A DNA stretch of 64,000 nucleotides, taken from the NCBI GenBank assembly GCA_000092065.1, contig CP000587.1; one strand, 5' to 3'. Source of the stretch: Ostreococcus lucimarinus (lineage: Eukaryota). Below are positions 5,449 to 58,450 of the stretch, piece by piece. The first letter of the stretch is position 1. Each line of letters opens with the position of its first letter. A model generated the notes under the pieces. It was given only the letters and a program-made list of their open reading frames with translations, was not told the DNA's origin and ran no database searches. The position numbers were made by a program, and so were the translations under genes.

Positions 5449-5539
5449 AAATACACGCTAATTCTCGCGCCGGTTAGTGGGTTCAACTTATTTTACAGCT
5501 ATCTTTCGTGTGCGTCAGCCACATACATACACACATCGT

Positions 5540-6430
5540 TTAGCCGAGCATGTTCACAAGCAAAATCCACTTGTGCTTGATTGGATTGTCTTTTTCGTCC
5601 CTCTTCTTTGCTTCCAAGTATTGATGCGTCACGATCGACATCACGGCGTGAATACAATCAAATTCTTGCCTTTCGTCCAACATCGGCACGTCTATGACCA
5701 AGTTCAAATCGTCGCACACGTTGTTCAACCACTCCTCGAGGTCACCTCGCCGTTCGTGCTCCACGGCGTCGTTAAAAAAGTGACCCGCGCCAGTGCGGCG
5801 CAGCTCGCGCTCGATAGCGTCAGCGATGCAGTCGACCGCCTTGACGCAGATGATTTGTTCCGTCATCGGATTCATCATCGGCACGTGAATCAACCGGTTC
5901 AAAAACGTCGCGATGACCCATCGCGTCGTCTGGTCGATTTCATGCGGCTGCGCGTGGTGCACCAGCGTATCCGGTTTCGGCGCTTCGTTCGCGACGTGAT
6001 CTTTCACCATCTGGAGCGCCTTCGTCGACGCCGCGCCGCGCGTCTCTCGATCCGCCAATTCCAACGCCGCGCGTCCCTCTTGCGTCTTGTGCCACTTCTC
6101 CAAATCGCGCGCCGCGCGCGACTTGAACCACCCGTGTCCGTGGTCGTGGTGGTGATTATGATGATGGGTGTGTCCACCGCCGATCGCCATGGCGTCGACG
6201 CGGACGTTACCGCGCGCGGCGGCGAGAATCGTCACCGGAGGTGTTCGACGTTTGCGGTCGCCGCCGCGCCGCGCGCGCGATGGCGTCGGCGCGCGAGCGC
6301 GCGCGGCGTCGACGCTGGCGCGCATTGTTGGTGATTCGCGACGACGCGCGCGGTCGAGCGATGCGAGGCACCGTGTGGCGATCGAGCGAGAGGGCTCGAT
6401 CGTAACGTGCCGATCGGCGGTCGGTCGCAC
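5540..6430 (-). CDS. Hypothetical protein with a histidine cluster (HTHHHNHHHDHGH) and an Arg/Ala/Ser-rich transit-peptide-like N-terminus
   Basis: The 296-aa ORF has ordinary amino-acid composition in its C-terminal 200 aa, with several E/H/D-rich helices. I do not recognise the family. The start may instead be an internal Met. Confidence 0.45.
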   Translation of the reverse strand: MRPTADRHVTIEPSRSIATRCLASLDRARRRESPTMRASVDAARARAPTPSRARRGGDRKRRTPPVTILAAARGNVRVDAMAIGGGHTHHHNHHHDHGHGWFKSRAARDLEKWHKTQEGRAALELADRETRGAASTKALQMVKDHVANEAPKPDTLVHHAQPHEIDQTTRWVIATFLNRLIHVPMMNPMTEQIICVKAVDCIADAIERELRRTGAGHFFNDAVEHERRGDLEEWLNNVCDDLNLVIDVPMLDERQEFDCIHAVMSIVTHQYLEAKKRDEKDNPIKHKWILLVNMLG

Positions 6431-6683
6431 TTATTTTGACTGCGAAGGCGAGGATTCAGAGTTGGTTCAAACTGCTGATTGCAATAGTGATTATGTGCTA
6501 AGTGTCGCGCGACTGATTCGACAGACGCGTCGGGCGCGAGCGATGATCGAGGCGATGGACGCTCGCGCCGCGGCGGCGCGCGTGAGAAATCGGGCGCAGA
6601 CAGGCGCTTCTAGTGCGTTCGCGCGCGCGGAAACCGGCGAACGAAACAAACAATCCCTTCTAAGGAAATGAATGGTCGGTGGC

Positions 6684-7664
6684 TTACGCGGCGGAGGCAC
6701 CGGCGACGAGCTCGATAATTTCCGAGGTAATCTTCGCTTGGCGAGCGCGGTTGTAAACCAAAGACAAGGTCTTCTTGAGCTCCTTGGCGTTGTCCGAGGC
6801 GGTGGACATCGCGTTCATGCGCGCCGCGAGCTCAGAGGCGAGAGACTCTTGGAGCGCACGGAGGATTTGGGAGTTCATGTACAGCGGCATGAGGGCATCA
6901 AGAATTTGGTTCGGGTCTTGCTCGAACTGCATGACACCCTCAAACTCAGAAACCTCCGTGTCAGACGCTTCGCGCTTGACGGCGAACTTGCCATCTTCAG
7001 TCGTGAGCTTGAAGATTTCATCGTTCGCCGCGTCAATGCAAACACCGTCAACGTTGCACACCTCACCTTCCTTGGAGAGCGGCAAAATGGTTTGCACGGT
7101 CGGCTCCGCAGCGATGAGGGAAACGAATCGGGAGTAAATCATCTCGACCTTGTCGACTTCCTCCGAGGTGAACTCGGCGAAGATTTCGTCGGCGATGGTT
7201 TGCGCGTCTTGCGTGGACGGCGCTTGACCCATGTCGAAGCGCTTGACCAAGTTGTATTGCTCCTTGCGACGGTTGAAGTACACACCACCCTTCTTACCGA
7301 CGGTGATGAGCTTGCATTCAACGCCTTGCGCCTTGAGCTCCGCCACGCGCTGCTCCGTCTTGCGAATAATGAAGTTGTTGAACCCCCCGCACAAACCACG
7401 ATCACCCGTGCAGACGACGAGCATCGCCGTCTTCACCGGGCGCATCTTCGTCAACGGCACGTCCACATCCTCACCAGCCAATCGGCTGTTGATGGCGAAC
7501 AAAACCTTGACCAAAGACTCAGAGAACGGGCGCGCGCCAATGACGGCGTCTTGCGCCTTGCGCACCTTCGCCGCCGCGACGAGCTTCATCGCATCGGTGA
7601 TCTTCTTCGTGTTACCGACCGACGCGATGCGGTCGCGCATTTCCTTCGGGCTCGCGTTGCGAAT
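6684..7664 (-). CDS. ATPC: ATP synthase gamma chain, chloroplastic, exon 2 (mature protein)
   Basis: RDRIASVGNTKKITDAMKLVAAAKVRKAQDAV and the rest align with chloroplast gamma subunits. The redox-regulatory Cys pair is present in EVCNVDGVCIDAANDE. A TAG stop lies immediately upstream in frame, so a 5' exon is required. Confidence 0.85.
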   Translation of the reverse strand: MRNASPKEMRDRIASVGNTKKITDAMKLVAAAKVRKAQDAVIGARPFSESLVKVLFAINSRLAGEDVDVPLTKMRPVKTAMLVVCTGDRGLCGGFNNFIIRKTEQRVAELKAQGVECKLITVGKKGGVYFNRRKEQYNLVKRFDMGQAPSTQDAQTIADEIFAEFTSEEVDKVEMIYSRFVSLIAAEPTVQTILPLSKEGEVCNVDGVCIDAANDEIFKLTTEDGKFAVKREASDTEVSEFEGVMQFEQDPNQILDALMPLYMNSQILRALQESLASELAARMNAMSTASDNAKELKKTLSLVYNRARQAKITSEIIELVAGASAA

Positions 7665-8153
7665 CTACGAATCGTCATAAAGCGTACGAATCACCGTCAG
7701 TCTCTCGCGTCTCGCGTCGGTCTCGCGCGCGCGCAAAACCCTCTTTGGATACGATCGTCCCGCCCCCGCCCGCGCCCACGCGCGCGCGCACGCCGCGCGC
7801 CGCGCCCCCCGATCGCGCGCGCGATCACCACACAACCCCCGCGCGCCCCCGCGCGCACGCGCGCCCCCCGACGCGCGTCGCCATCGCCCGCGCCCTCCCG
7901 ATGACGCCGCGATCCGATCCGCGTTATCCTCACCAGACCCTACGTCCACGACCGGGCCCGGCCGCGCGTCCCTCGCGCGCGCGCGCGTCGCCCCGCGACG
8001 CCATCTCTCGCGCACTATTTTCCTCCACCGAATCCCGCGCGCGATCATCCTCGCCCGCGCGCGCGTCCTCGCGCGCGGCGCGATAATCCCGATGCCCGTC
8101 CCATCGCGCGCCATCGCGTCGTTCGCGCGTCGCGTCGTTCGTCGTTCACGCAC
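7665..8153 (-). other. ATPC: Intron (489 nt) of ATPC, with donor G|GTGCGT, branch CTGACGG 28 nt upstream of the TAG acceptor
   Basis: Inferred from the frame and from comparing the exon junction (transit peptide MSAVAHTSLAMSKATAVRGASVKRSTAAQRATAPQRSLV | IRNASPKEMRDRIASV) with algal ATPC precursors. Confidence 0.5.
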
Positions 8154-8270
8154 CACGAGGGATCGCTGCGGCGCCGTCGCGCGCTGCGCGGCGGTGGACC
8201 GTTTCACGGACGCACCGCGCACGGCGGTGGCCTTGCTCATGGCGAGCGACGTGTGGGCGACGGCGGACAT
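8154..8270 (-). CDS. ATPC: ATP synthase gamma chain, exon 1 (chloroplast transit peptide, 39 codons)
   Basis: ATG at 8268-8270. The peptide is Ser/Ala/Arg-rich and has no acidic residues. It ends at a GTGCGT donor in phase 0. Confidence 0.55.
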
Positions 8271-8479
8271 CGAGTCGATCGTTCGGCGCGCGCGTGTATG
8301 CGGCCGAGGCGCGCAGATTCGCCCGCCGGATCGCGCGGCTTCGAGGGGTCGCGTGTTCGTGATGGGGATCTCGTGGGATTGTATACGAGGTTTGGTGCGT
8401 GTTTAAATATGGGGAAATGAGGGCGAGTGCGCATTGAAATATGGGGTCGAGGACGACGCGCGCGCGGCGGCGGCTCGGA

Positions 8480-9400
8480 TCACGGCGCGATCGTCAAGGC
8501 GTGGGTGACGATGTCCACCGGACCGCCCGCGGCGAGGAGTACGCTCGCAGCTTGGTCGGCGTCGGGAAATTGCGTCGGATCGCACGGGGCGCCGCGCGCG
8601 TGCAGGGCGTCCCAGGTTTCCTCGCGGCGCTGCGTCTCGCGAACGACGACGACGGCGCCGGTGCGATCGACCTCGGTGAAATCGCAAAAGAATCGAGTCT
8701 CGAACAGGCGAATGAGAACGCCGTCGACGCGGAGCCAAAATCTGAGCAAGACGAACCAACACTTGGGCATGACGCGCACCTTGAGCCCGAGGTGGGCGAC
8801 GCCGTTGTCGTCGAGCTCGGACTCGTACAGCGTCAGCTCGTCGTACATCAGTATCGGATCTCTCTCGGTGAGCATCGCGCGATCAATGCGTCTGTCGGTG
8901 AGCTCCCACGTCGGTGGCTGGCGATTCGAATCGCTCGTCGTCGTCACCGTGCCGCCGTACGGCGTCGTAAACGTCCAGTCGTACTCGGCGCTTCGCTCCG
9001 TCGTATTCCACGACGTCATCGACGGTCCGGGCGGTAACGCGGCGCCGTCCGCGCCGTCCGCACTCGTGCCGACACCTTCCCCGCCTCGCGCGTCCCTCGT
9101 CGCGGCGATCGACGCATCGCCGAACCGCTCGACGTGCGACCGTCGCCACGTCTTCGCCGCCGCGACCTCGATCGCGGGCAACCCGAGCTTCACCCACTCC
9201 CTGAGCGCGTCTTCCGCCTCGAACCTCAGCGCGACGCCGCTCTCGTGTCGCAGTTCGAGCGCGCTGTCGAACAGCATCTCCGGCGTCGTCGGCGCGTCGA
9301 CGTTCGTCTCGACTTGCTCTATTCGCGCTCTTTTCGCGATCGGCGTCGACGCGCTCTCGACGTCCCATCCACCGCGCGCGACGCGCGCGACCGTCGTCAT
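8480..9400 (-). CDS. TIPRL: TIP41-like protein (TOR pathway / PP2A regulator)
   Basis: Contains YDWTFTTPYGG, DPILMYDELTLYESELDDNG and KVRVMPKCWFVLLRFWLRVDGVLIRL, which are characteristic TIP41-family blocks. Confidence 0.75.
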   Translation of the reverse strand: MTTVARVARGGWDVESASTPIAKRARIEQVETNVDAPTTPEMLFDSALELRHESGVALRFEAEDALREWVKLGLPAIEVAAAKTWRRSHVERFGDASIAATRDARGGEGVGTSADGADGAALPPGPSMTSWNTTERSAEYDWTFTTPYGGTVTTTSDSNRQPPTWELTDRRIDRAMLTERDPILMYDELTLYESELDDNGVAHLGLKVRVMPKCWFVLLRFWLRVDGVLIRLFETRFFCDFTEVDRTGAVVVVRETQRREETWDALHARGAPCDPTQFPDADQAASVLLAAGGPVDIVTHALTIAP

Positions 9401-9529
9401 CGCGCGCGCGCGTCGCGGTCGCGCGTCGCCGACGCCCCGCGACGCCTCGCGCGCGCGCGCCGCGCGTCGCGTTCTCGCGTCGTCAGCCAGCGCGAACCGT
9501 CACTCGCGCGCGCGCGACGCGACGACGCG

Positions 9530-11149
9530 ATGACGCGCGTGCGCCGCGCCATGGAGGCGTTCCGCGCGATCGCGGACCCGCTCGAGCGCTACGTCTACCT
9601 GCGCGAGCTCCAGCGCGCGAGCGCGGAGACGTTTTATCGCGCGCTCGTGCGCGAACCGCTCGAGCTCATGCCGTTCGTGTACACGCCCACCGTGGGCGAG
9701 GCGTGCGAGAAGTATCACCGCCTGGGCATCGAGACGAACGGGGTGTACATCACGGCGGACGACGCGGGACGCGTGGGGGCGAAGCTGCGAGGACACTGGG
9801 ATCGGGCGGCGGCGGCGCGCGCGAGGGCGCGCGAGGGGCTCGACGGCGAAGCGGCGAAGCGACGAGGGGTCGATCGTCGCGCGCGCGCCGACGACGGCGT
9901 CGCCGTGGCGGTGGTGACGGATGGAGAACGGATCTTGGGGCTCGGTGATCTCGGCGCGGGCGGAATGGGGATCAGCGAGGGGAAGATTTTGTTGTACACG
10001 GTGTGCGCGGGCGTGCGGCCGTCGGCGTGTTTGCCGGTGTGCCTGGACGTCGGGACGAATAATCAGAGATTGCTGGACGACCCGAATTATAAAGGATTGC
10101 GACGGACGCGGCTGAAGGGGGAGGCGTACGACGCGCTGGTGGACGAGTTCATGCGAGAGATGCGGGCGTGGCAGCCGAGGTGTTTGGTGCAGTTTGAGGA
10201 TTTCGGCAACGCGAACGCGTTTCGTATCTTGGAAAAGTATCGCACGACGGGACCGTGCTTCAACGATGACATTCAAGGCACCGCCGCGATCACGCTCGCG
10301 GCGCTGCTCAGCTCGTTGCGAGCGACGAAAGGGAAACTGGAGGATCAAAAGGTTTTATTTTACGGCGCCGGCGAGGCGGGCGTCGGCATCGGCGAGCTCA
10401 TCGCCATGGCGATGGAGAAGACTGGGATGTCGCACAAGGAAGCCATGGAGCGATGTTACTTCATGGATTCCAAGGGTCTGGTTTGCAAAAGTCGTCTGGA
10501 TGGATTGCAGCCGCACAAGGTGGCGTTCGCGCACGACGTCGAGTATCAGCCCGATTTACTGTCGGCGATTTCCGCCGTCAAGCCCACGGCGTTAATCGGC
10601 GTGAGCACGATCGGCGGGGCGTTTACGGAAGACGTCGTCAAGGAAATGTGCGCTCTGAACGAGCGGCCAATCATTTTTCCGCTGAGCAATCCCACGTCGA
10701 AGTCAGAGTGCACGTTTGAGCAAGCCATGGCTTGGAGCGACGGCAAAGTCGTCTTCGCCAGCGGGTCGCCGTTTGATCCAGTCGTGCGCCCGCGAGATGG
10801 CGTAAAAGTCTTCCCAGCGCAAGCGAACAACGCGTACGTTTTCCCGGCGCTCGGCTTCGCCGCCGCTCTCACGGGGGCGTCGCAAATCACCGACGATTTA
10901 TTCCTCGCCGCCGCCGAATCGCTCGCGTCCATCACAACCGACGCGGAGATCGACGCCGGCCATTTATTCCCGGACATGAACTCCATCAGACAAGTCTCAG
11001 TAACGTTAACCGCGGAGATTTGCGAGATGATTGTGAAATCCGGCCTCGGTCGCGCCCCGAGCGGGGTGTCCACGCACGCGGACTGGTTGGCGTACATCGA
11101 GTCGCACCAATACGACCCGGGCGAGGAGCAACCGATATCCAAGCTCTAA
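9530..11149 (+). CDS. NAD(P)-dependent malic enzyme
   Basis: PLERYVYLRELQRASAETFYRAL, GLGDLGAGGMGISEGK and FNDDIQGTAAITLAALL are canonical malic-enzyme motifs. The start is the internal ATG at 9530; the first 132 codons of the listed ORF overlap the TIP41 gene on the other strand. Confidence 0.85.
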   Translation: MTRVRRAMEAFRAIADPLERYVYLRELQRASAETFYRALVREPLELMPFVYTPTVGEACEKYHRLGIETNGVYITADDAGRVGAKLRGHWDRAAAARARAREGLDGEAAKRRGVDRRARADDGVAVAVVTDGERILGLGDLGAGGMGISEGKILLYTVCAGVRPSACLPVCLDVGTNNQRLLDDPNYKGLRRTRLKGEAYDALVDEFMREMRAWQPRCLVQFEDFGNANAFRILEKYRTTGPCFNDDIQGTAAITLAALLSSLRATKGKLEDQKVLFYGAGEAGVGIGELIAMAMEKTGMSHKEAMERCYFMDSKGLVCKSRLDGLQPHKVAFAHDVEYQPDLLSAISAVKPTALIGVSTIGGAFTEDVVKEMCALNERPIIFPLSNPTSKSECTFEQAMAWSDGKVVFASGSPFDPVVRPRDGVKVFPAQANNAYVFPALGFAAALTGASQITDDLFLAAAESLASITTDAEIDAGHLFPDMNSIRQVSVTLTAEICEMIVKSGLGRAPSGVSTHADWLAYIESHQYDPGEEQPISKL

Positions 11150-29018: not shown

Positions 29019-29633
29019 TTACCACTCGAAATCCGCCGCGGGGTTGTCGCCAGAGTCGGAGTCGGAGTCATCCAAGAACAAGCCCTTGTCGCGCAAGTAG
29101 TTGATGGCCGCCGTCAAAGCATTGTCCTTGAACTTCAAGTAGTACTTGCCGTTGTCGGTGTCTTCGGAGATGCTCGCCGTCGCCCACGTCGCCGTGGAAC
29201 TTTCCGCCGGCGCGCCACCGACGCCACCACCGAGATCGGTATCGCACACCGCCTTCATCCATTCAGTGGCGTTCAACTTGTCCTTCAACGGTTCCGCGAC
29301 GTACGCGACCATGGCGATCTTATTCGTCTGGTCGTTGTGTCCGATGATGAGCTTCGAGATGTGCCCCGAGCAGCCCTTACGCTCTTCCTCGTTCGCCGGA
29401 TCCGGAATCGCGTTCATCCCCTCCATGGAGACTTCAAGCAATTCGACCGAATCACCGGCTTCGGTCATTCGCGTGCAAAAGCACGTGAGCCCGGACATGT
29501 CCGCCGCGCCCTCGATCTCCACGCCCTTCTTCCCGCCCTCCTTCAAGCACTTCGCGATCTTCTTCTCCGCGATTCCCGCCGCCTTCGCGGCGTCGCACTT
29601 CGGCCATTCCTGCGTCCGCGATCGATCCATCAC
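29019..29633 (-). CDS. Hypothetical acidic-tailed protein (204 aa)
   Basis: Clean ORF with K/E/D-rich, non-GC-artefact composition. It ends in the acidic tail DDSDSDSGDNPAADFEW. Family not recognised. Confidence 0.5.
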   Translation of the reverse strand: MMDRSRTQEWPKCDAAKAAGIAEKKIAKCLKEGGKKGVEIEGAADMSGLTCFCTRMTEAGDSVELLEVSMEGMNAIPDPANEEERKGCSGHISKLIIGHNDQTNKIAMVAYVAEPLKDKLNATEWMKAVCDTDLGGGVGGAPAESSTATWATASISEDTDNGKYYLKFKDNALTAAINYLRDKGLFLDDSDSDSGDNPAADFEW

Positions 29634-30515
29634 CGATCGTCAGTCCTCCGTCGTCGCTCGTCGCGCCTCTCGTCGCGCCGATCCGCGATCGCGCCGATCG
29701 CCGCGGCATCCTTCCGCTAGGTCGTCCGTCATCATTAATCATCTCGCGTTCGCTCGCGTCTCCCGTCGCGTCGTCGTCCCTCGCGCGTCGCCGACGATCG
29801 TCGATTTGGTTTCGCGCGTCGTCGCGTCGCGTCGTCGCGCACCGTGGTGAAAGACATCGTCGTCGTCGTCGAGTTCTGGCGCGATCGGTCGAGCCGCCGC
29901 CGCCGCGCGCGCGCGCGAAACCCTAACGTCGCGATCGGATTTATGCGATGCGCGCCATTTAGTTCTAAATGGACGTTGTATACGGAGACGCCAGAACGCG
30001 ACGCGCGATGGGCGCGCGCGACGCCGACGCGGCGTGCGCGCTGCGCGACGACGAGGGTGCGCGCGCGCGTCGAGCGCGCGTCGCGCGCGGCGCGATGATT
30101 CGACGCGTGGGACCGCGCGCCGGTGCATCGAAGACGACGATGACGACCACGACGATGATGAACGACTTTTTGCTGGACGACGACGCGAGGACGACGCGAC
30201 GACGACGCGAGGACTGACGACTCGACGACGATCGCGACGCGCAGTGTCGAACGCGCTGTTCGAGCTCACCGCCCTGGCCGGGCTGGACGTGCGACGGGAG
30301 GTGCACGACGCGGTGCTGGAGCTGTCGCGCGCGCGCGTGGTGCCGACGGCGACGGCGCAGGTGCTTCGCTCGCTCGCGAGCAAGGCGGCGGACGCGCGCG
30401 CGGCTGGACTCGAGGACGCGTTGCGCGCGCCCGCGCGCGAGTAGGCGCGACGCCGTGGTGGCGTGAGTGTGTTTGTATTCGTAACGCGCGCGTCACAGCG
30501 CGCCTCGAGCTCGAC

Positions 30516-32495: not shown

Positions 32496-33376
32496 TCACG
32501 AGGACTTCTTTTTAGACACTCTATAAGCACCCACGACCATGGCATGGTCGCGTTCGTACGGCTCCAAAGTGAGCTGCTCGGCAGGCTTGAAGCCTTCAGT
32601 TTGTAGCTTCTTCACCTCTCGCGCGAACACCGCCTCCGGCGCGGCGGTGGAGTCGATGCACGACGCCTTGATGGAGATCATAAAGTTACCACCTTGCTTC
32701 AAAAAGTATTGCGCGTTCAAACCAACGATGCGAGCTTGATCCGGCTGCGCCACGTCGGCGAAGATAGTGTCAACCATACCGATCAACATGCGGTACTTTT
32801 GCGGGTGACGCGCGTCCTCGATGATCGGAATGACGTTGGTGCGCTTCTTCGCCATGTTGACCAAGTCGCGCCCAGAGCGGTGAGAAAACTCAACGGCGTA
32901 CACCGTGCCTTCGGGCCCGACCAAGTCGGAGCAATGCGACACCGTCGTACCCGAAGCACCGCCGAGATACAAGAGCTTTGAGCCGGGCTTGATGTGAATG
33001 GCGTCCAAACCGCCGAGAATACCCGCCGCAATTTTCGATCTAAACGGGTTCCACACGCGGTACTCCGTCTTCGTACCGTCCGCCTCGTCGACTGAAATAC
33101 GCTTCTCACCGTACACGCTCTCGCCGACGACCATGTTCCGCGTCACGAGCGCATCTTCCTTCCCGCGAGCGACGAAGACGCCCTCGTGACGATGCTTTTC
33201 GACGACCACCTTCGACCCGCCCTTCATACCGCCGCGTCCACCACCGCGTCCGCCACCGCGTCCACCACCGCGTCCACCGCGTCCACCACCGCGTCCGCCA
33301 CCGCGTCCGCCGCCGCGTCCGCCGTCGCGTCCGCCTCGTCCGCCTCGTCCGCCGCCTCGTCCGCCCGGCGAGAACC
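32496..33376 (-). CDS. FIB: Fibrillarin (rRNA 2'-O-methyltransferase), exon 2: GAR domain plus methyltransferase core
   Basis: The RGG-repeat GAR domain is in frame upstream of [31 protein letters not shown], and the canonical fibrillarin core follows. No Met lies between the upstream stop and the GAR domain, so a 5' micro-exon is needed. Confidence 0.9.
33228..33365. repeat. FIB: RGG/GGR codon repeat encoding the fibrillarin GAR domain
   Basis: (gcgtccaccacc)n-like periodicity seen directly. Confidence 0.85.
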
Positions 33377-33655
33377 CTGCAATTCACCCAAAAAACGAAT
33401 TCTCCCCGTCAGTCCCTCGTTCGCGTCCCGTCGCGTCGCCGACGCGCGTGGACGATGGCGTCGATATTTATGTCTTCGATCGCGACCACCTCGCGTCGAC
33501 GCGCGACGTCGCATCGCGCGCGTTCTCGCGTTTTCTCGAATCCGCCGCAATCGATCGTCCCGGCGGCGGTCGTCGATTGGCGCGTAATTCCCGTCGACGC
33601 GACGTCGCGTTCGCGCGCGCGCGCGATCGATGACGCGCGAGTGAAAGTGACGCAC
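33377..33655 (-). other. FIB: Intron (279 nt) of the fibrillarin gene
   Basis: Donor GGAG|GTGCGT. Branch ACTGACGG lies 29 nt upstream of the acceptor ttttttgggtgaattgcag|GG. The intron is in phase 1. Confidence 0.6.
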
Positions 33656-33680
33656 CTCCTCGGCCGCCGCCTCGTCCCAT
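33656..33680 (-). CDS. FIB: Fibrillarin exon 1 (micro-exon, 8 codons + 1 nt: MGRGGGRG-G)
   Basis: The sequence ATGGGACGAGGCGGCGGCCGAGGAG is immediately followed by GTGCGT. Joined with exon 2 it gives [17 protein letters not shown]..., like the MRPGFSPRGG N-termini of other fibrillarins. Confidence 0.6.
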
Positions 33681-33935
33681 GGGTGCGCGCATGGTTACCG
33701 TACGCGCGCGTGTGTGCGGCGCGCGCGGCTCGGCGCCTTTTAGTTGTGCGCGCCGCAGTGTCGAGTCGTGAACCGTCGAGAGTCCCCGAGCGAGGAAACA
33801 AACCACCGAGCGACGCGCGAGGACGCGCCGACGCGCGATGAAGGCGATGAATTAATGCGTATGAATTAATGATGCGCGTCGACCGCGCGCGCGACGGACG
33901 CGCGCGCGCGTCGTCGCCGATCTCGATTGAACTAT

Positions 33936-44485: not shown

Positions 44486-44822
44486 GGCGTCCCGCTCGAT
44501 CGCCGTCCCGCGCTTCCGCGCGTCGCGTCCCGACGTCGCCGTATCGCGCGCCCGTTCGCTCGCGTTCGGCTCTCAGCGCCTCCGCGTGCCCTCGCGCGCG
44601 GTTCGCGACGCGCGCGACCGTCGCGCGCGTCGTCGTCGCGCTCTGCCGCGGTCGCCTTTCGCGCGCGCGACCCTACGCCCGGGTCGTCTTTTTCGCCCCC
44701 GTTTGGCGACGCGCGCGTCGACCCCCGTTTGGCGACGTCCACCGACCGACGTCGACGCGCCGGCGCGCGCGCGCGCGACGACGCGACGCGCGAGGGACGG
44801 CGCGACTCGAGACGCGCGCGCG

Positions 44823-53709: not shown

Positions 53710-53982
53710 CTAAAACCAAAAGTTGATGCTTATCGACGGCGTGAGTGCGCGGACGTAGTGCCAGCATTTTGCCGGGATGTAAACAAAGTCGCCCGGTCCG
53801 ACTATAACTTCGTACGCCGTAGCTAAGCTAAATTCAGGGAAGCGATCGAGGTCGGGGTGTTCCACGTCCACAGCGGAGAAGTTCCCTTGCGAATGTCTCG
53901 TCGTGGATTTAGACGCGGTCGTGCGGTACATGTAAGGCGTATCCGACTCGAGAAATAGTCTTATCAACTTGTATCCCGCAAC
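53710..53982 (-). CDS. JmjC-domain protein, exon 2 (C-terminal part of the JmjC fold)
   Basis: VAGYKLIRLF...VDVEHPDLDRFPEF...PGDFVYIPAKCWHYVRALTPSISINFWF. The track's 'M' at 54000 is actually a GTG codon, not an ATG. This exon starts at the acceptor tttttgtgcttgcag|GTT. Confidence 0.7.
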   Translation of the reverse strand, partial: VAGYKLIRLFLESDTPYMYRTTASKSTTRHSQGNFSAVDVEHPDLDRFPEFSLATAYEVIVGPGDFVYIPAKCWHYVRALTPSISINFWF

Positions 53983-54211
53983 CTGCAAGCACAAAAACAC
54001 GCGAAGTGAGTCGACGGCGGCGGCGGGGTTGGCGAATACGAATGTAGGGCGCTGTGTAGGCCGACGCTCATAACTTTGATACGCCGGTTCTATTGGCGCT
54101 CGCGTTTATGTAGGGAGTCGGTATCACCGGGCTGCCATGACTTTCACAGACCGGCTTCTATTAGACTCCCGCAACGAAAGTGGACAAAAATACGAGTTGC
54201 TCAAAGCGCAC
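53983..54211 (-). other. Intron (229 nt) of the JmjC gene
   Basis: Donor GGTCAG|GTGCGC immediately after the FGQ codons. The acceptor has a pyrimidine tract plus CAG. Both exons are in phase 0. The joined sequence reads HFDTYDNLFGQ|VAGYKLIRLF, restoring the conserved JmjC motif. Confidence 0.65.
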
Positions 54212-55234
54212 CTGACCAAATAAATTGTCGTACGTGTCGAAATGACACGGTGTGATCGTTCCCGCGGTACCCATCCAGACGTAGACCCGTTCGAAGCTAG
54301 GGGCGCAATTTCCAGCGCTGACATATTCTGGAACCGCGTAGTCTTCCGCCAACTCGCGAAGCTGATCAACCAGTTGATGCTGCGCCAAGTACGCAACATC
54401 ACCTGTGCTCGCGCCCCTCACCGAAGGCAACATGTCCTCATCGATAAAGTCTGCGATTGTTTTCACCTGTTCTCTCCAGTTTTCAACGTCGCTGTACTTG
54501 CCTATTTCTAACGGTACGCTGCGGTGACCGTGGACGAATCGCCACCATTCCAAGTCGGCCCATTTGCGCAGCGCCGGCCATTCCTCACCGAGCGATTCGA
54601 TGAAGACCGGTATCTCGGTCTTATAATAGCGCTGCTTAAACGTTTTCAAGTCCATTTCGCGATGATGCACTCGCGCGAGCCTCGTCTGCGCGGCATGATC
54701 GCCTCGGTCGCCTTTCGGCGCCGCGCTCGGGAACAACCACTCGCTCGTCGACGCGCTTCGCGCGTGCCCGGCGCTCACCTCACGGCGTCCGTCCATCCCC
54801 AACGCCCGCTCGCACGCGCGCACGAAATCAACCACCATATCCACGGGCGCACCCACGATCAAGGCCATGTCCACCGCCAGCATCGCCTCCCGCGCGCTCT
54901 CCGCTCGCGTCTCGCCGTCGCCGTCCCGGTCCCGCAGCGCCGCCGCGCACCGTCGAAGCTGCGCCAGGACGTACGCATCTCGCCAGCTCTCCCGCGGCCA
55001 CGCGCCGCGCGCTTGCAGCGCCGCGTACGTCGCGTCGACGACGCGCTCTCGAGCCTTCTTCGCGTCGTCGTCGTCATCCGCGCTCGACGACTTTGTCAAG
55101 ACGAGGTCGAGCCAACGCGCGAGTTTTTCTTCGCCGTGCGCCGCGATGTCCGCCACCGCGTCGCCTCCGAACGCGCGCGCGAACTCGTCGGTCACGCGCG
55201 CGTCTAACGCGTCGACGTCGGCGCTCGGAGCCAT
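54212..55234 (-). CDS. JmjC-domain protein, exon 1
   Basis: Start MAPSADVD at 55234. The JmjC N-terminal blocks WWRFVHGHRSVPLEIG and GTAGTITPCHFDTYDNLFGQ are present. Confidence 0.7.
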
Positions 55235-55295
55235 GCGAGCGCGCGCGAGGGTGAGGAAACGCGCAGAGTTGGTTGGTTTGGTTGTTGCACGCGCG

Positions 55296-55952
55296 CTACG
55301 ACTGCCACAGCCGCTTCAACTCGCGTCCGGCTCGGCATTTCTCCACCGCGCTCAGCGCGATGCGCAAGACTTCGTCCTGAATCACGTCCGGTTCGCGATT
55401 GGCGTCGATCACGTCCCACCAATCTTCTCGCATCGCTTCGAAACTCGCCTTGACGGCGCGTTGCATCTCCGTCGTCTCGTATCGCTCCTCGCCGAAGCCG
55501 CCGCGCTTCGCCGCGTCCTCGAGCGATAACTCTAAATACATCAACGCGTCCGGACGCGGTAATCCGACTTCAGGGGCGCGACACCACTCTAAATCCAATC
55601 CATCCACCCCCTTCGCCGCCGTAAACGCGCACCCGCTGTACGAGTACCTATCGCACACCAACGTCACGCCGCTCGCGAGCTTGCGTTCCATGAGCGCCTT
55701 CTTCTCCCATCGATTCGCCGCGAACAGCAGGTGTATCGCCCCATCCTCCATCTCGCTCTTCGACCGCAAGTACTGATCGATCATCTTCCCCATCGCCGTC
55801 GCGCGATCGGGGTACCGCCACAGCTCCGCCTCGACCCCCCGCGCCTCGAGCGTGTGCACCAACCGCATCGCTTGCGTCGACTTCCCGCATCGATCCGCGC
55901 CTTCGAACAGCACGAACGCGCCTCGCGCGGCCACTTTTCCCGCGGCGGACAT
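55296..55952 (-). CDS. Thymidylate kinase (dTMP kinase)
   Basis: P-loop FVLFEGADRCGKSTQ, DRY-like block LVCDRYSYSG, and lid region. The start is the internal ATG at 55950-55952 (MSAAGK). A possible N-terminal extension would start at 56090. Confidence 0.8.
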   Translation of the reverse strand: MSAAGKVAARGAFVLFEGADRCGKSTQAMRLVHTLEARGVEAELWRYPDRATAMGKMIDQYLRSKSEMEDGAIHLLFAANRWEKKALMERKLASGVTLVCDRYSYSGCAFTAAKGVDGLDLEWCRAPEVGLPRPDALMYLELSLEDAAKRGGFGEERYETTEMQRAVKASFEAMREDWWDVIDANREPDVIQDEVLRIALSAVEKCRAGRELKRLWQS

Positions 55953-56226
55953 CGTCGCGAGCGCGCCCGCACGCGCGGCGTCTCGCCGCGGCGCGTCGCG
56001 GTGCGTCGCGCGTCGTCGCGGTGCGTCGCGCGTTTCAAACGCGCGCGCGGCGACCGACCGCGTGTGACGCCGAATGTCCGAATTCTCCATCCCGGGATAT
56101 GGCGCGCAGTCTGGTTTATCCAGATCGCGCGCGCCGAAAACCCTAGTGATGTCGGCTGACTGTTTGCGCACACGACGCGCCGACCCCGCGGGGCACGCGC
56201 GCGCGCGCGCCACACCGCGCCGCGTC

Positions 56227-56334
56227 ATGTTTACGATCTCCGCGTCCTCCACCGCCGCGCGACCGACCGTGGTCGCGCACCGTCGCGCGAATAAGACGCG
56301 CGCGAAGCGTTCCGTCGTCGTGCACGGCGCCAAG
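56227..56334 (+). CDS. ATPD: ATP synthase delta chain (OSCP), chloroplastic, exon 1 (transit peptide, 36 codons)
   Basis: MFTISASSTAARPTVVAHRRANKTRAKRSVVVHGAK resembles algal ATPD transit peptides (..RRTVVVMARK..). It ends at AAG|GTGCGC in phase 0. Confidence 0.6.
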
Positions 56335-56707
56335 GTGCGCGAACGCGCGAGCGCGCGACGCGCGCGCGCGACGCGAACGCGCGCGCGAGTAATCGCGAGG
56401 GGCGCGATCGGGCGTGTTATCCTCGACGACGACGGCGTCGGACGAGGCGCGAACGCGATGAAGAGGACCGCGAACGCGCGTGGGAGTTTTGTTGCGTCGC
56501 GCGCGCGCGTCGCGGCGCGCGCGCGGGCGTCGACGGGGGGACGGCGGACGGGACGAGGCGACGGCGATCGCGCGGGGCGTATCCTCGAGGGGTTTGGCGC
56601 GCGCGCGCGCGGCGCGGACGAATCCGACGTTTGACGCGGTGTGGGTGGACGTGCGTTTGACGAGAACGGTAGACTGACGGATGATTGATCGTTTTCGCGC
56701 GTTGCAG
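56335..56707 (+). other. ATPD: Intron (373 nt) of ATPD
   Basis: Donor GTGCGC. Branch ACTGACGG lies about 30 nt upstream of the acceptor gttttcgcgcgttgcag|TCC. Exon 2 has a TGA stop immediately upstream in frame, so an upstream exon is required. Confidence 0.6.
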
Positions 56708-57253
56708 TCCAACCCGGTGTCCAGCGGTTACGCCGCGGCGCTCGTCGACGCGTGCAAGTCCTCCGGCGCGCTCGAACAAGTGCACGCCGATATGGAGACG
56801 CTCGACGCGTACGTCAAGGCGAACGCCAGCGTTGCGGGCTTCTTGGCCAACCCGACCATCGTCGCGGAAAAGAAGAAGGATGTTTTGGCGAAGCTCGGCA
56901 AGGAGGCTGGCTTCCACGCGTTCACGGGCAACTTCTTGAACTTGTTGGTGGACAAGAGACGTGAAAACCAAATCGAGGCCATCATCGCCGAGTTTGAAAC
57001 TTTGTTCTGCGAGGCGACGGACACGCAAGTCGCGACGGTGACTTCCGCGGTCAAGCTCGAAAACGAGCAACAATTCATGATTGCGAAGAAGTTGCAAGAG
57101 ATGACGGGCGCCAAGAACATCAAGCTCAAGCCGGAAGTCGACGAGTCTCTCCTCGGCGGCTTCGTCGTGCAATACGGCAAGGATGGCTCCGGCTTCATCG
57201 ACATGTCCGTCAGAGGACAAGTGGATAAGCTCGCCAGTGTGTTCGTGAACTAA
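56708..57253 (+). CDS. ATPD: ATP synthase delta chain (OSCP), chloroplastic, exon 2 (mature protein)
   Basis: SGYAAALVDA...ANPTIVAEKKKDVLAKLGKEAGF...ATDTQVATVTSAVKLENEQQFMIAKKLQEMTGAKNIKLKPEVDESLLGGFVVQYG aligns throughout with chloroplast delta subunits. Confidence 0.85.
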   Translation, partial: SNPVSSGYAAALVDACKSSGALEQVHADMETLDAYVKANASVAGFLANPTIVAEKKKDVLAKLGKEAGFHAFTGNFLNLLVDKRRENQIEAIIAEFETLFCEATDTQVATVTSAVKLENEQQFMIAKKLQEMTGAKNIKLKPEVDESLLGGFVVQYGKDGSGFIDMSVRGQVDKLASVFVN

Positions 57254-57382
57254 GCGAATACGTCGTCGATTTGCCGCATAGCCGAAAGTAGAACCGCCGG
57301 ACAAGTTCCGCCGCTGATTTAATTTCAATTCAATTGAGTCACCTCACACTTTCGTCGTCGCTAACTAATGGCTAACACTAAT

Positions 57383-58348
57383 CTACCGCGCGTCGTTCGA
57401 GCTATTCGTCGCGCGACTGCTCGCGGCTTTAAAGAATTTCGCCCCGACGTACGCGAGCGTCTTCGTCGGCGACGTGGTCAGGAGCCCCGCGACTGCTTGT
57501 CGCAGCGTGCTCGCGCGTACGATTCGCCTCAGGCAAGCGCGCACCGCGTCGCCGACCCGTTCAGCGTCGTCGCCGACTTCAACTCTATTCAACATAGTCG
57601 TCACCGTCGCCGGCAACGCATCGATGCGCTCGCGCGTCGCTTCAGGGCTCTTATCTTGCCGCCACGTCGACGCCGACGTCTCGACGCCTTTGAGCTCGCG
57701 CACGACGTCCTCGTACATCTCTCGCATCGCCTCCCCGTTCGATCTCGCGATGCGCTCGATCTTCAACCCATCCTCCGCCGCGAACGCGAATCGCACGTCC
57801 CCGTCGTAGGACAACCGCACGATCGCGCGATGAAAATCGAGTTCGCTGAACGTCTCCGGCAGCGTCAACAGCGCCGCGTTCGCCGCGCTCCGCGCGTTCC
57901 GCGCCTGCGCGTTCACGATCGCATCGCACGCGCGCGCCGTCTCGTGCGGCTTGTGCATCCTTCCCGCGACGAATAAATGCTTCCATCGCTCTAAATCATC
58001 CACGACGTCGCGCACGTCGACGACGCCGTACTTGTACGCGCGTCCCCGTTCGTCCCGCAGGCGCGCGTTGTAGTGCGCGTCCGCGCCCAGCGTCGTCGCC
58101 GCGCCGTGAATCGCGCGCCCACCGCCCAGGCGCGCGTGCCACGCGTAGTGCGATGGATTTCGCGTCGCGTTCGCGTCGTGCCACGCCGCGGGATCGCGCA
58201 CGGCGACGAGCACGTCGAGCGCGCGCTCGGGTCCGGCGACCGACGCGTCGGCGAGCACGGCCGAGCCGTACGCCAGCGCGTGCTCCACGGGCGGCAGCGC
58301 GGCGAGGACGCCGGCGATGCGTTCGCGCGCGCGCGCGTTCGCGCGCAT
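57383..58348 (-). CDS. TAMM41: Tam41/Mmp37 family protein (mitochondrial phosphatidate cytidylyltransferase-like)
   Basis: LAYGSAV, YKYGVVDVRDVVDDLERWKHLFVAGRMHKP and AANAALLTLPETFSELD match Mmp37 blocks. Confidence 0.7.
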   Translation of the reverse strand: MRANARARERIAGVLAALPPVEHALAYGSAVLADASVAGPERALDVLVAVRDPAAWHDANATRNPSHYAWHARLGGGRAIHGAATTLGADAHYNARLRDERGRAYKYGVVDVRDVVDDLERWKHLFVAGRMHKPHETARACDAIVNAQARNARSAANAALLTLPETFSELDFHRAIVRLSYDGDVRFAFAAEDGLKIERIARSNGEAMREMYEDVVRELKGVETSASTWRQDKSPEATRERIDALPATVTTMLNRVEVGDDAERVGDAVRACLRRIVRASTLRQAVAGLLTTSPTKTLAYVGAKFFKAASSRATNSSNDAR

Positions 58349-58450
58349 TCGAGCCGCGCGCGATCGATCGCGACGGCGCGCGCCGCGGTGTGCGGCGTCG
58401 GTTACGGCGCGCGTTCGTTCCTCTATCCACTCTATTCTACAGTAGAATTT

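Follow-up and report, generated by a model that had tools for sequence, protein, structure and literature searches.

The two nuclear genes considered here raise the question of how subunits of one chloroplast enzyme each came to be encoded with a single intron where the transit peptide gives way to the mature protein, and of why these introns were kept in a genome where most genes have none. In the initial annotation of this stretch of DNA (64,000 nucleotides of Ostreococcus lucimarinus contig CP000587.1, called the window in what follows) the arrangement was taken as a “textbook exon-shuffling signature”. Our results favor another answer. With high probability the two loci are the ordinary nuclear ATPC and ATPD genes of O. 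lucimarinus CCE9901, encoding subunits gamma and delta of chloroplast ATP synthase (CF1), and each has kept one ancient, 5'-most intron from multi-intron ancestors.

ATPC occupies positions 6684-8270 on the minus strand and ATPD positions 56227-57253 on the plus strand, each with two exons and one intron. From ATG to ATG the distance is 47,957 nt, in agreement with the 48 kb first stated, and about 30 unrelated genes lie between the two. The joined gamma model is identical at every residue to XP_001418858.1 of O. lucimarinus CCE9901 (UniRef A4RZT9), and the joined delta model is identical at every residue to an annotated 217-aa protein of the same strain (P0121), which carries the title “F-ATPase family transporter: protons”, a generic public product name without the word “chloroplast”. 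The exon/intron structures of the annotated gamma and delta genes do not differ from those of the joined models. Pfam searches placed gamma in PF00231 at 3.4e-91 (protein residues 46-364, profile positions 3-284 of 285) and delta in the OSCP/delta family, PF00213, at 1.5e-48 with a full-length profile match. Among solved structures gamma scored 442-444 bits against chloroplast chains, as opposed to at most 182 bits against bacterial and at most 103 bits against mitochondrial chains, and delta scored 187 and 142 bits against chloroplast delta chains and at most 68 bits against others. Homology extends over the full length of CF1 gamma from Chlamydomonas (22vl chain D) and spinach (6fkf chain g) at E ~1e-132, and of CF1 delta from the same two organisms (22vl chain d and 6fkf chain d) at E 1e-40 to 1e-54. 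The CF1 identities and coordinates originally proposed were thus borne out by Pfam, by the structures and by identity with the annotated proteins. It should be added that public annotation and an EST study already contain both genes, with their introns and with the redox motif described below.

The gamma subunit carries a redox-regulatory segment, EVCNVDGVC (7038-7064, minus strand), with cysteines at positions 242 and 248 of the precursor. In the alignment GEVCNVDGVC stands opposite GEICDINGKC of spinach and GELCDVDGKC of Chlamydomonas, so that the regulatory two-Cys insertion is conserved, and the thiol-regulatory pair that had been pointed out in this gene corresponds to the regulatory cysteines of both species. 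To judge from this alignment, CF1 of O. lucimarinus is likely to be under thioredoxin control through gamma Cys242 and Cys248.

The first exons of both genes are transit-peptide-like. In ATPC, exon 1 (8154..8270, minus strand; 39 codons; MSAVAHTSLAMSKATAVRGASVKRSTAAQRATAPQRSLV, MSAV...QRSLV) equals the N-terminus of XP_001418858.1, and its 39 residues comprise 20 Ser/Thr/Ala and 6 Arg/Lys but lack Asp and Glu. In ATPD, exon 1 (56227..56334, plus strand; 36 codons; MFTISASSTAARPTVVAHRRANKTRAKRSVVVHGAK) matches P0121 and is rich in Ser/Thr/Ala, with 8 Arg/Lys and again no Asp or Glu. These compositions fit the earlier suggestion that the 39 and 36 codons would represent the transit peptides. When the two transit-peptide exons were compared with each other, similarity was undetectable; within ATPC, exon 1 is conserved at 97.5% in four related loci (L001-L004). 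Both second exons run to the stop codon. That of ATPC (6684..7664, minus strand), beginning IRNASPKEMRDRI..., would comprise the mature gamma subunit together with the last 3-5 residues of the transit peptide, and that of ATPD (56708..57253, plus strand), beginning SNPVSSGYAAAL..., the mature delta subunit. The structure alignment shows the gamma N-terminal extension ending at the end of the spinach presequence. With the mature N-termini of the spinach subunits, as given in the literature, as reference, the beginning of exon 2 is offset in the alignments by 3 residues for gamma and by 0 for delta. This agrees with the claim that exon 2 begins within a few residues of the mature N-terminus. A further remark, that an in-frame stop directly precedes exon 2, holds for gamma, whose intron ends in the in-frame triplet TAG, but not for delta, where the stop (TGA, 56675-56677) lies 11 codons upstream.

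The ATPC intron (7665..8153, minus strand) is 489 nt long with 74% G+C and reads GTGCGT...GACTGACGG...TAG, and the ATPD intron (56335..56707, plus strand) is 373 nt long with 72% G+C and reads GTGCGC...AGACTGACGG...GCAG, with CAG as acceptor; both are in phase 0. The A of a branch-like CTGAC (within ACTGAC) lies 32 nt from the 3' end in ATPC and 30 nt from it in ATPD. With GT-AG ends, a branch-like site and removal from the mRNA, both are U2-type spliceosomal introns. The splice junctions of both genes are backed by spliced metatranscriptome contigs: one (L018) joins ATPD exon 1 to exon 2 at 100% identity, and the 365-aa gamma ORF lies on a 1337-nt contig that is too short to contain the ATPC intron. 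Moreover, transcript-derived proteins of close relatives from the MERC and JGI collections span the gamma and delta junctions with RSLVIRNAS and HGAKSNPV, respectively. In the table of the EST study “atp synthase gamma-subunit” is found among the intron-containing clusters, which supports the gamma intron (PMC2367439). Junction support, proposed with the initial annotation as a check, is thus provided by spliced contigs for both genes and by published ESTs at least for gamma, and coordinates and contigs agree on a single intron per gene at the transit-peptide/mature boundary. A search of the whole window with Rfam at the gathering threshold returned 0 RNA genes, and hence none encoded in the introns.

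Each pre-mRNA is spliced once by the U2-type spliceosome, by way of the donor GTGCG(T/C), the branch motif ACTGAC located 30-32 nt before the 3' end and a YAG acceptor. Splicing brings a short exon with nearly the whole predicted stromal transit peptide together with one mature-subunit exon. The resulting precursors would then enter the chloroplast, undergo cleavage 0-5 residues into exon 2 and become part of CF1.

Judged by their positions in aligned orthologs (about 8 lineages for gamma and about 7 for delta, a small sample in which some public gene models are automatic annotation), both introns are ancient, orthologous phase-0 introns found across distant chlorophyte classes. For gamma, O. 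lucimarinus, Pedinophyceae sp. YPF-701 and Coccomyxa sp. Obi all have the intron in alignment column 88, and Bathycoccus has it one codon off, in column 87; a Micromonas-like contig has the equivalent junction (ASLQ-VLNAS, the hyphen marking the intron position here and below). All Ostreococcus, Micromonas and Bathycoccus-like loci share the site of the delta intron, whose column is 78 in Ostreococcus and Micromonas, 76 in Pseudoscourfieldia and 77 in Cymbomonas. The first ATPC introns of Pedinophyceae and Coccomyxa resemble that of O. lucimarinus in being phase 0 and sitting close in front of the mature N-terminus (with the conserved ..LQ-V at the end of exon 1), and the first ATPD introns of Cymbomonas and Pseudoscourfieldia are likewise phase 0 and in the same or a near column (exon 1 ending ..V(V/T)MK-A). 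These four differ from Ostreococcus in having kept downstream introns, and the sequence and length of their introns are unrelated to those of Ostreococcus; orthologous introns in relatives have diverged down to 44% column identity.

The gamma intron is absent, and the transit peptide contiguous, in Klebsormidium and in Arabidopsis, whose atpC1 is intronless, and the same is true of the delta intron in Chlamydomonas and Closterium; neither boundary intron was present in the streptophyte orthologs sampled. In Chlamydomonas the ATPD introns have other positions, following residue 155 and close to the stop codon. Relatives' ATPC and ATPD genes contain two to six introns each (for gamma 6 in Coccomyxa, 5 in Klebsormidium and 3 in Pedinophyceae; for delta 2 in Cymbomonas), with 2 positions common to the gamma genes of Coccomyxa and Klebsormidium, and Ostreococcus retains the 5'-most alone. 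Both introns are the sole survivors of ancestral multi-intron genes.

Retention of the 5'-most intron matches the habit of this genome, in which introns are few, 5'-proximal and over-represented in highly expressed genes. Among the five intron-bearing genes found in the window, four have the intron within the first 40 codons, and two of these four are non-plastid, namely fibrillarin and a gene at 29 kb, whose introns follow codons 12 and 5, respectively. Two other window genes with transit-peptide-like extensions have no boundary intron. According to the intron statistics given in the EST study, 16-20% of O. lucimarinus genes have introns and about 80-84% have none, in keeping with the initial description of the genome as mostly intronless, and the mean intron length is 188 nt (PMC2367439). 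The same account reports that introns are in excess among genes with high expression, chloroplast functions included, and that intron length correlates positively with expression. The ATPC and ATPD introns exceed the 188-nt mean, in line with that reported correlation (PMC2367439).

One further hypothesis concerns the persistence of the introns and not their origin, and is therefore compatible with our main explanation. It states that, in a genome with hardly any intergenic space upstream of its genes, these long introns were kept for candidate cis-elements (I-box-like TATCC/GGATAA and GTAGGGTC) that set or co-ordinate the expression of the CF1 subunit genes, and we advance it tentatively. The gamma intron contains two conserved islands, GTAGGGTCTGGTGAGGATAACGCG at 7920..7936 (minus strand), which consists of GTAGGGTC plus an I-box-like GGATAAC and is conserved with an 88%-identical relative (L008), and GATCGTATCCAAAGAGGGTTT at 7736..7756 (minus strand). 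The delta intron contains GATCGGGCGTGTTATCCTC at 56406..56424 (plus strand), with TTATCC as the reverse complement of GGATAA, and GATCGCGCGGGGCGTATCCTCGAGGGGTTT at 56566..56595 (plus strand). Between otherwise diverged gamma introns the islands GTAGGGTC..GGATAACGCG and GATCG..TATCC..GAGGGTTT are conserved, the same short blocks are found in the delta intron, and delta introns of other Ostreococcus clades have aligned TTATCC blocks. In the gamma and delta introns of relatives TATCC/GGATA occurs at 4.8 per kb, compared with 0.71 per kb for the remainder of the same loci (Poisson P ~2e-9), with 19 occurrences observed and 6.2 expected from shuffles, values that call for caution in that the motifs were chosen by eye from both introns before testing in relatives and homologous introns are non-independent samples. 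The count is 0 in the control introns of fibrillarin and the 29-kb gene. However, there is no enrichment of TATCC in Bathycoccus and in two Micromonas-type delta introns.

The motif GTAGGGTC occurs in six Micromonas-type delta introns and three Ostreococcus gamma introns, in each case in sense orientation, and 0 times in the other 163 kb of the loci; an RNA-level splicing signal would fit this sense-only orientation equally well. The space upstream of the two genes is only 209 and 274 nt, as compared with introns of 489 and 373 nt. Upstream of ATPD an exact telo-box, AAACCCTA (56138..56145, plus strand), lies 82 nt before the ATG and is a possible promoter element (for telo-box background see PMC3022908). 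Within introns AGGGT alone is not enriched (14 observed and 9.7 expected, non-significant), and an enrichment of telo-box-like motifs there was rejected. GATCG was likewise dropped as a specific part of the modules, CGATCG being frequent in both control introns too. In the literature on Ostreococcus cis-motifs and on spinach AtpC/AtpD gene structure we found nothing directly usable. Taken together, it is possible, although doubtful, that the first introns of ATPC and ATPD are conserved regulatory modules, in which candidate TATCC/GGATAA and sense GTAGGGTC elements across Ostreococcus and Micromonas would co-ordinate the light/diel expression (or the splicing) of CF1.

Exon shuffling would account for the origin of the introns: each would mark the recombination junction between a targeting-peptide exon and a transferred cyanobacterial gene, and would have been kept since. 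We consider this improbable. Both are phase-0 introns whose distance to the mature N-terminus of the spinach counterpart, as aligned, is 0 and 3 residues, the same arrangement is seen in two independent genes, and the fit to the processing site is tighter than plain 5' bias predicts, which leaves room for a causal link with transit-peptide acquisition. The introns are also old, the gamma intron being common to Mamiellales, Pedinophyceae and Trebouxiophyceae and the delta intron to Mamiellales, Pycnococcaceae and Pyramimonadales, and with this age and positional conservation they may have originated at the fusion junction. However, orthologs that encode the transit peptide contiguously, which the initial annotation itself had named as counter-evidence, do exist in the gamma genes of Klebsormidium and Arabidopsis and the delta genes of Chlamydomonas and Closterium, a pattern for which secondary loss could account. 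Moreover, the transit-peptide exons are dissimilar, and neither a donor nor a related exon or intron was found in the window and the fetched loci. The sequence at the exon junctions of relatives is CAG-GT, the usual proto-splice context, which fits later intron gain too, and the other window genes with transit-peptide-like extensions lack such an intron. The gamma gene was transferred before the divergence of Archaeplastida, and given so early a transfer a relic of exon shuffling would need more than 1 billion years of retention as well as repeated loss. Outside the green lineages ATPD is plastid-encoded. Since 5'-proximal introns occur in non-plastid genes as well, and orthologs with contiguous transit peptides exist, exon shuffling is possible rather than established, and the arrangement is not the textbook signature for which it was taken.

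An intron at the presequence boundary of plant cytochrome c1 was reportedly read as a trace of exon shuffling by Long et al. in 1996. Presequence-boundary introns in diatoms and Euglena have also been taken as such traces (PMC2920757). In all of these the intron splits the targeting from the mature part, as in ATPC and ATPD, but the accepted cases differ in that the donor gene or similar introns or exons were identified, whereas for ATPC and ATPD neither was found. In primary-plastid lineages ancestral presequence introns are held to be almost impossible to identify (PMC2920757). That the introns of ATPC and ATPD arose together with transit-peptide acquisition is possible.

A recent insertion of a mobile “introner”, of the kind known in Micromonas, that came by chance to lie near the 5' end is very improbable and was rejected as contradicted by the data. 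The introns are GC-rich, of above-average length and have the donor GTGCG in common, but a BLAST search against the 64-kb window returned nothing but short low-complexity stretches rich in CGCG, without a further copy of either intron, direct alignment of the ATPC and ATPD introns matched them at splice signals only, and orthologous introns are present in other genera and classes. Finally, it is hardly credible that the gene models are wrong and that the proteins begin, without transit peptides, at ATG 7640 (gamma) and ATG 56681 (delta), where ATG-initiated ORFs do exist and where the ORF finder had placed the starts: these starts were rejected on the spliced contigs, on the joined N-termini of close relatives' transcript-derived proteins and on the conservation of exon 1 in relatives, ATG 56681 lies inside the spliced-out ATPD intron, and a gamma protein starting at MRDRI would lose the targeting signal and conserved N-terminal residues.

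In conclusion, the presented arrangement is real and tidy, but ordinary, and its significance for discovery is small. The boundary introns, conserved across chlorophyte classes and missing in the sampled streptophytes, constitute a datable pair of cases, and as such they bear on the old question of whether introns had a part when transit peptides were acquired in primary-plastid lineages. The motif islands provide a testable lead on intron-borne regulation, in a transformable model genus with upstream regions of 200-300 nt. If the introns do act as regulatory modules, this would explain how they survived extreme genome compaction at two to three times the average intron length.

The gamma subunit gene of the chloroplast ATP synthase (ATPC) lies on the minus strand and the delta subunit gene (ATPD) on the plus strand, with 47,957 nt from ATG to ATG. 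ATPC starts at an ATG at 8270 with a 39-codon exon 1 (MSAVAHTSLAMSKATAVRGASVKRSTAAQRATAPQRSLV) and a GTGCGT donor, followed by a phase-0 intron of 489 nt and 74% G+C with the 3' end ...GAGACTGACGGTGATTCGTACGCTTTATGACGATTCGTAG, and by an exon 2 that begins IRNASPKEMRDRIASV... and extends from 7664 to the stop at 6684. ATPD has its ATG at 56227, a 36-codon exon 1 (MFTISASSTAARPTVVAHRRANKTRAKRSVVVHGAK) followed by a GTGCGC donor, a phase-0 intron of 373 nt and 72% G+C with the 3' end ...TAGACTGACGG...GTTGCAG, and an exon 2 (56708 to 57253) beginning SNPVSSGYAAAL... The coordinates, single introns and first-exon lengths proposed in the initial annotation were accurate at both loci. Its claim of an in-frame stop immediately preceding exon 2 holds for gamma, where the stop is the acceptor TAG itself, but not for delta, where a TGA (56675-56677) is found 11 codons upstream. 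In the gamma intron the exon-1 frame stays open for 163 codons up to the acceptor TAG (7665-8270, minus strand, with exon 1), and the resulting 201-aa ORF is probably without meaning, since the chance of such an ORF is ~0.09 at 74% G+C.

Splicing of both introns is supported by transcripts. In the 1016-nt contig L018, exon 1 of delta adjoins exon 2 at 100% identity with the 373-nt intron gone. L018 is a metatranscriptome contig whose first 131 nt are unrelated AT-rich sequence in place of the ATG, and we therefore read it as a probable assembly chimera. The 365-aa gamma ORF, with one residue difference, is found on a 1337-nt contig that is shorter than the unspliced gene (1587 nt) and thus spliced. 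Transcript-catalogue proteins of close relatives cross both junctions (...RSLVIRNAS... in gamma, ...VVVHGAKSNPV... in delta). The motif RACTGAC, with only 11 sites on both strands of the window (e.g. 7702-, 56672+, 33414-, 29645-), places its branch A 30-32 nt before the 3' splice site in both introns, and occurs at a similar distance in the introns of fibrillarin and of an unnamed gene at 29 kb; in this it resembles a strong branch-point consensus.

The joined proteins match their Pfam families over the full length (gamma, PF00231, 3.4e-91; delta, PF00213, 1.5e-48), and their nearest solved structures are the chloroplast chains of Chlamydomonas (22vl) and spinach (6fkf), with bacterial and mitochondrial chains far behind. 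The gamma model (365 aa) is exactly XP_001418858.1 / ABO97151.1 of Ostreococcus lucimarinus CCE9901, and the delta model (217 aa) shows 100% identity to an NCBI protein from a 783,246-bp record of the same strain; consequently both exon/intron models are already public. These features are annotated and partly published: Table S2 of an EST study of O. lucimarinus introns (Lanier et al. 2008, PMC2367439), headed “BLAST2GO annotated intron clusters”, includes the ATP synthase gamma subunit.

Two lines of evidence make it well supported that exon 1 encodes a putative transit peptide in both genes. First, HMMER aligns S37, the residue with which delta exon 2 begins, to spinach V71, and gamma A43, which lies three residues into exon 2, to the A of spinach ANLRELRDRI, which we take to be experimentally determined mature N-termini; exon 2 accordingly starts 0 (delta) and 3 (gamma) residues from the mature protein, within the few residues that had been proposed. 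Secondly, both first exons are free of acidic residues and rich in Ser, Thr, Ala, Arg and Lys. The claimed thiol-regulatory Cys pair of gamma is present (GEVCNVDGVC, 7038-7064; Cys242, Cys248) and aligns with the spinach redox pair GEICDINGKC, from which thioredoxin control would be a reasonable inference. Such control of gamma is the normal state in the green lineage.

The gamma intron is widely shared. Two levels of relatives, with proteins 98% and 88% identical, share the same exon 1 and have introns of ~490-510 nt; the junction in a Micromonas-like contig is ASLQ|VLNAS, and in Bathycoccus the acceptor precedes VIQNAS, with a likely donor that precedes the Ostreococcus position by one codon. 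In the 414-aa gamma annotated for Bathycoccus prasinos (FO082277.1, L006:3001-3623), 57 extra codons appear to be read into the intron; this annotation seems to use the wrong donor, and GTACGC at ~3097 would yield a relative-like ...KRGQL|VIQNAS. A phase-0 intron in exactly the O. lucimarinus alignment column occurs in Pedinophyceae sp. YPF-701 (QLQ|VCAAGMKEL) and Coccomyxa sp. Obi (ALQ|VCAGLKD). Gamma has six introns in Coccomyxa, five in Klebsormidium and three in Pedinophyceae, with two positions common to Coccomyxa and Klebsormidium and one to Coccomyxa and Pedinophyceae. Judged by these counts and common positions, the ancestral gamma gene was multi-intron, the first intron alone being kept by Ostreococcus. 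The positions common to Coccomyxa and Klebsormidium, both lost in Ostreococcus, are PQ|GE(I/V)C, precisely where the redox-regulatory loop begins, and LQ|E(A/S)(L/I)A.

For delta, 80 metagenomic loci were fetched and 25 genomic contigs inspected, the remaining inspected contigs being spliced transcripts without the intron. All 25, drawn from Ostreococcus, Micromonas-like and low-GC Bathycoccus-like clades, place the acceptor right before (S/A)N(P/A)V.SGY or the corresponding residues. In five Ostreococcus clades exon 1 can be recognised, with introns of 276-622 nt that are almost unalignable, and Micromonas has its intron in the same column as Ostreococcus; those of Pseudoscourfieldia (VTMK|AAKSPVASGY) and Cymbomonas (VVMK|AGGDIASGY) are 1-2 columns off in an indel-rich stretch. 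Gene order is conserved too, with malic enzyme - TIP41 - ATPC - ... - aldehyde dehydrogenase common to close relatives, Micromonas-like contigs and Bathycoccus, and thymidylate kinase - ATPD - Tam41/Mmp37 across Mamiellales. This Mamiellales microsynteny covers 5477-11149 (gamma) and 55296-58450 (delta) of the window (comparison loci L001-L008, L014-L015). The 48 kb between the two genes hold roughly thirty unrelated genes, and Chlamydomonas ATPD is on chromosome 11 by its locus name, ATPC being on another; the gamma-delta proximity is probably coincidental.

A survey of the window (Pfam on ~35 likely genes, plus inspection of candidate splice sites) revealed three further introns. In fibrillarin (32499-33691, minus strand), a 279-nt phase-1 intron (33655..33377), the gene's only one, follows codon 12, just ahead of the Gly/Arg-rich region. 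The 29-kb gene (29022-29856, minus strand) has a 5-codon exon 1 (MSFTT), a 233-nt intron (29842..29610) and a 206-aa second exon to which Pfam and NCBIfam gave no match. A JmjC/cupin gene (53713-55315, minus strand) consists of two ORFs split by a ~227-nt low-GC intron (~54210..53984), the only one found in the window away from the 5' end. Of the five genes with introns, four thus carry just one, within their first 40 codons, and two of these four encode non-plastid proteins. By contrast, the transit-peptide-like N-terminal extensions of anthranilate synthase alpha and of a RidA/L-PSP protein run into the mature domain without a break. The EST study gives introns in 16-20% of genes (mean 188 nt), in agreement with the description of this genome as mostly intronless, reports a positive correlation of expression with intron number and length, and includes chloroplast functions among the intron-bearing clusters (PMC2367439).

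The initial annotation interpreted the boundary introns as traces of exon shuffling, to be refuted by orthologs with a contiguous transit peptide. The arrangement is seen in two independent genes, and both introns are phase 0, of great age and closely fitted to the processing site. However, contiguous transit peptides do occur and count against this reading: a single exon covers residues 1-134 of Klebsormidium gamma and residues 1-155 of Chlamydomonas ATPD, Closterium delta is likewise contiguous, and Arabidopsis atpC1 is without introns (PMC10253099), so that the boundary intron is absent from every sampled streptophyte ortholog and, for delta, from Chlamydomonas. Moreover, neither the targeting exons nor the introns of the two genes resemble each other, the CAG|GT junctions of relatives would also suit later gain at a proto-splice site, and the 5' bias extends to unrelated genes of the window. 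Given this balance, and the warning that introns ancestrally tied to transit-peptide acquisition are near-impossible to identify in primary-plastid lineages (PMC2920757), we consider exon shuffling plausible but unproven, and rather unlikely.

The gamma introns of otherwise diverged Ostreococcus clades keep two islands, CGTAGGGTC..GGATAACGCG and GATCG..TATCC..GAGGGTTT, and the O. lucimarinus delta intron contains GTTATCCTC and GATCG..GTATCCTCGAGGGGTTT. Motifs were chosen post hoc, and tests were run on sequences outside those used for picking. In relatives' gamma and delta introns, which as homologs are non-independent, TATCC/GGATA occurred 19 times versus 6.2 expected from shuffles, and at 4.8 per kb versus 0.71 per kb for the remaining sequence of those loci (Poisson P ~2e-9). 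GTAGGGTC is carried by the three Ostreococcus gamma introns and by six Micromonas-type delta introns, always sense-oriented, and is absent elsewhere in 163 kb of delta loci. A second copy in the window, at 44669 (minus strand), is located in the 5' region that separates the divergent genes for threonyl-tRNA synthetase and a methyltransferase. Neither motif was found in the control introns of fibrillarin and the 29-kb gene, the TATCC/GGATA enrichment was not seen in Bathycoccus introns, AGGGT by itself was not enriched in introns, and an Rfam scan of the window returned zero RNA families. The upstream space of gamma (209 nt) and of delta (274 nt, shared by a divergently oriented gene) is in each case shorter than the gene's own intron. 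Exact plant-type telo-boxes (AAACCCTA) at 56138-56145 (plus strand), 82 nt before the delta ATG, and at 29918-29925 (plus strand), ~60 nt before that of the 29-kb gene, are possible promoter elements. That the gamma and delta introns carry common candidate cis-elements is a moderately supported lead, and a role of the motifs in splicing at the RNA level is as possible as one at the DNA level.

In conclusion, what is added to the existing annotation, besides the cis-element lead, is the age and conservation of both introns: we regard the presented data as a demonstration that they are ancient, conserved across chlorophytes and the sole survivors of multi-intron genes.
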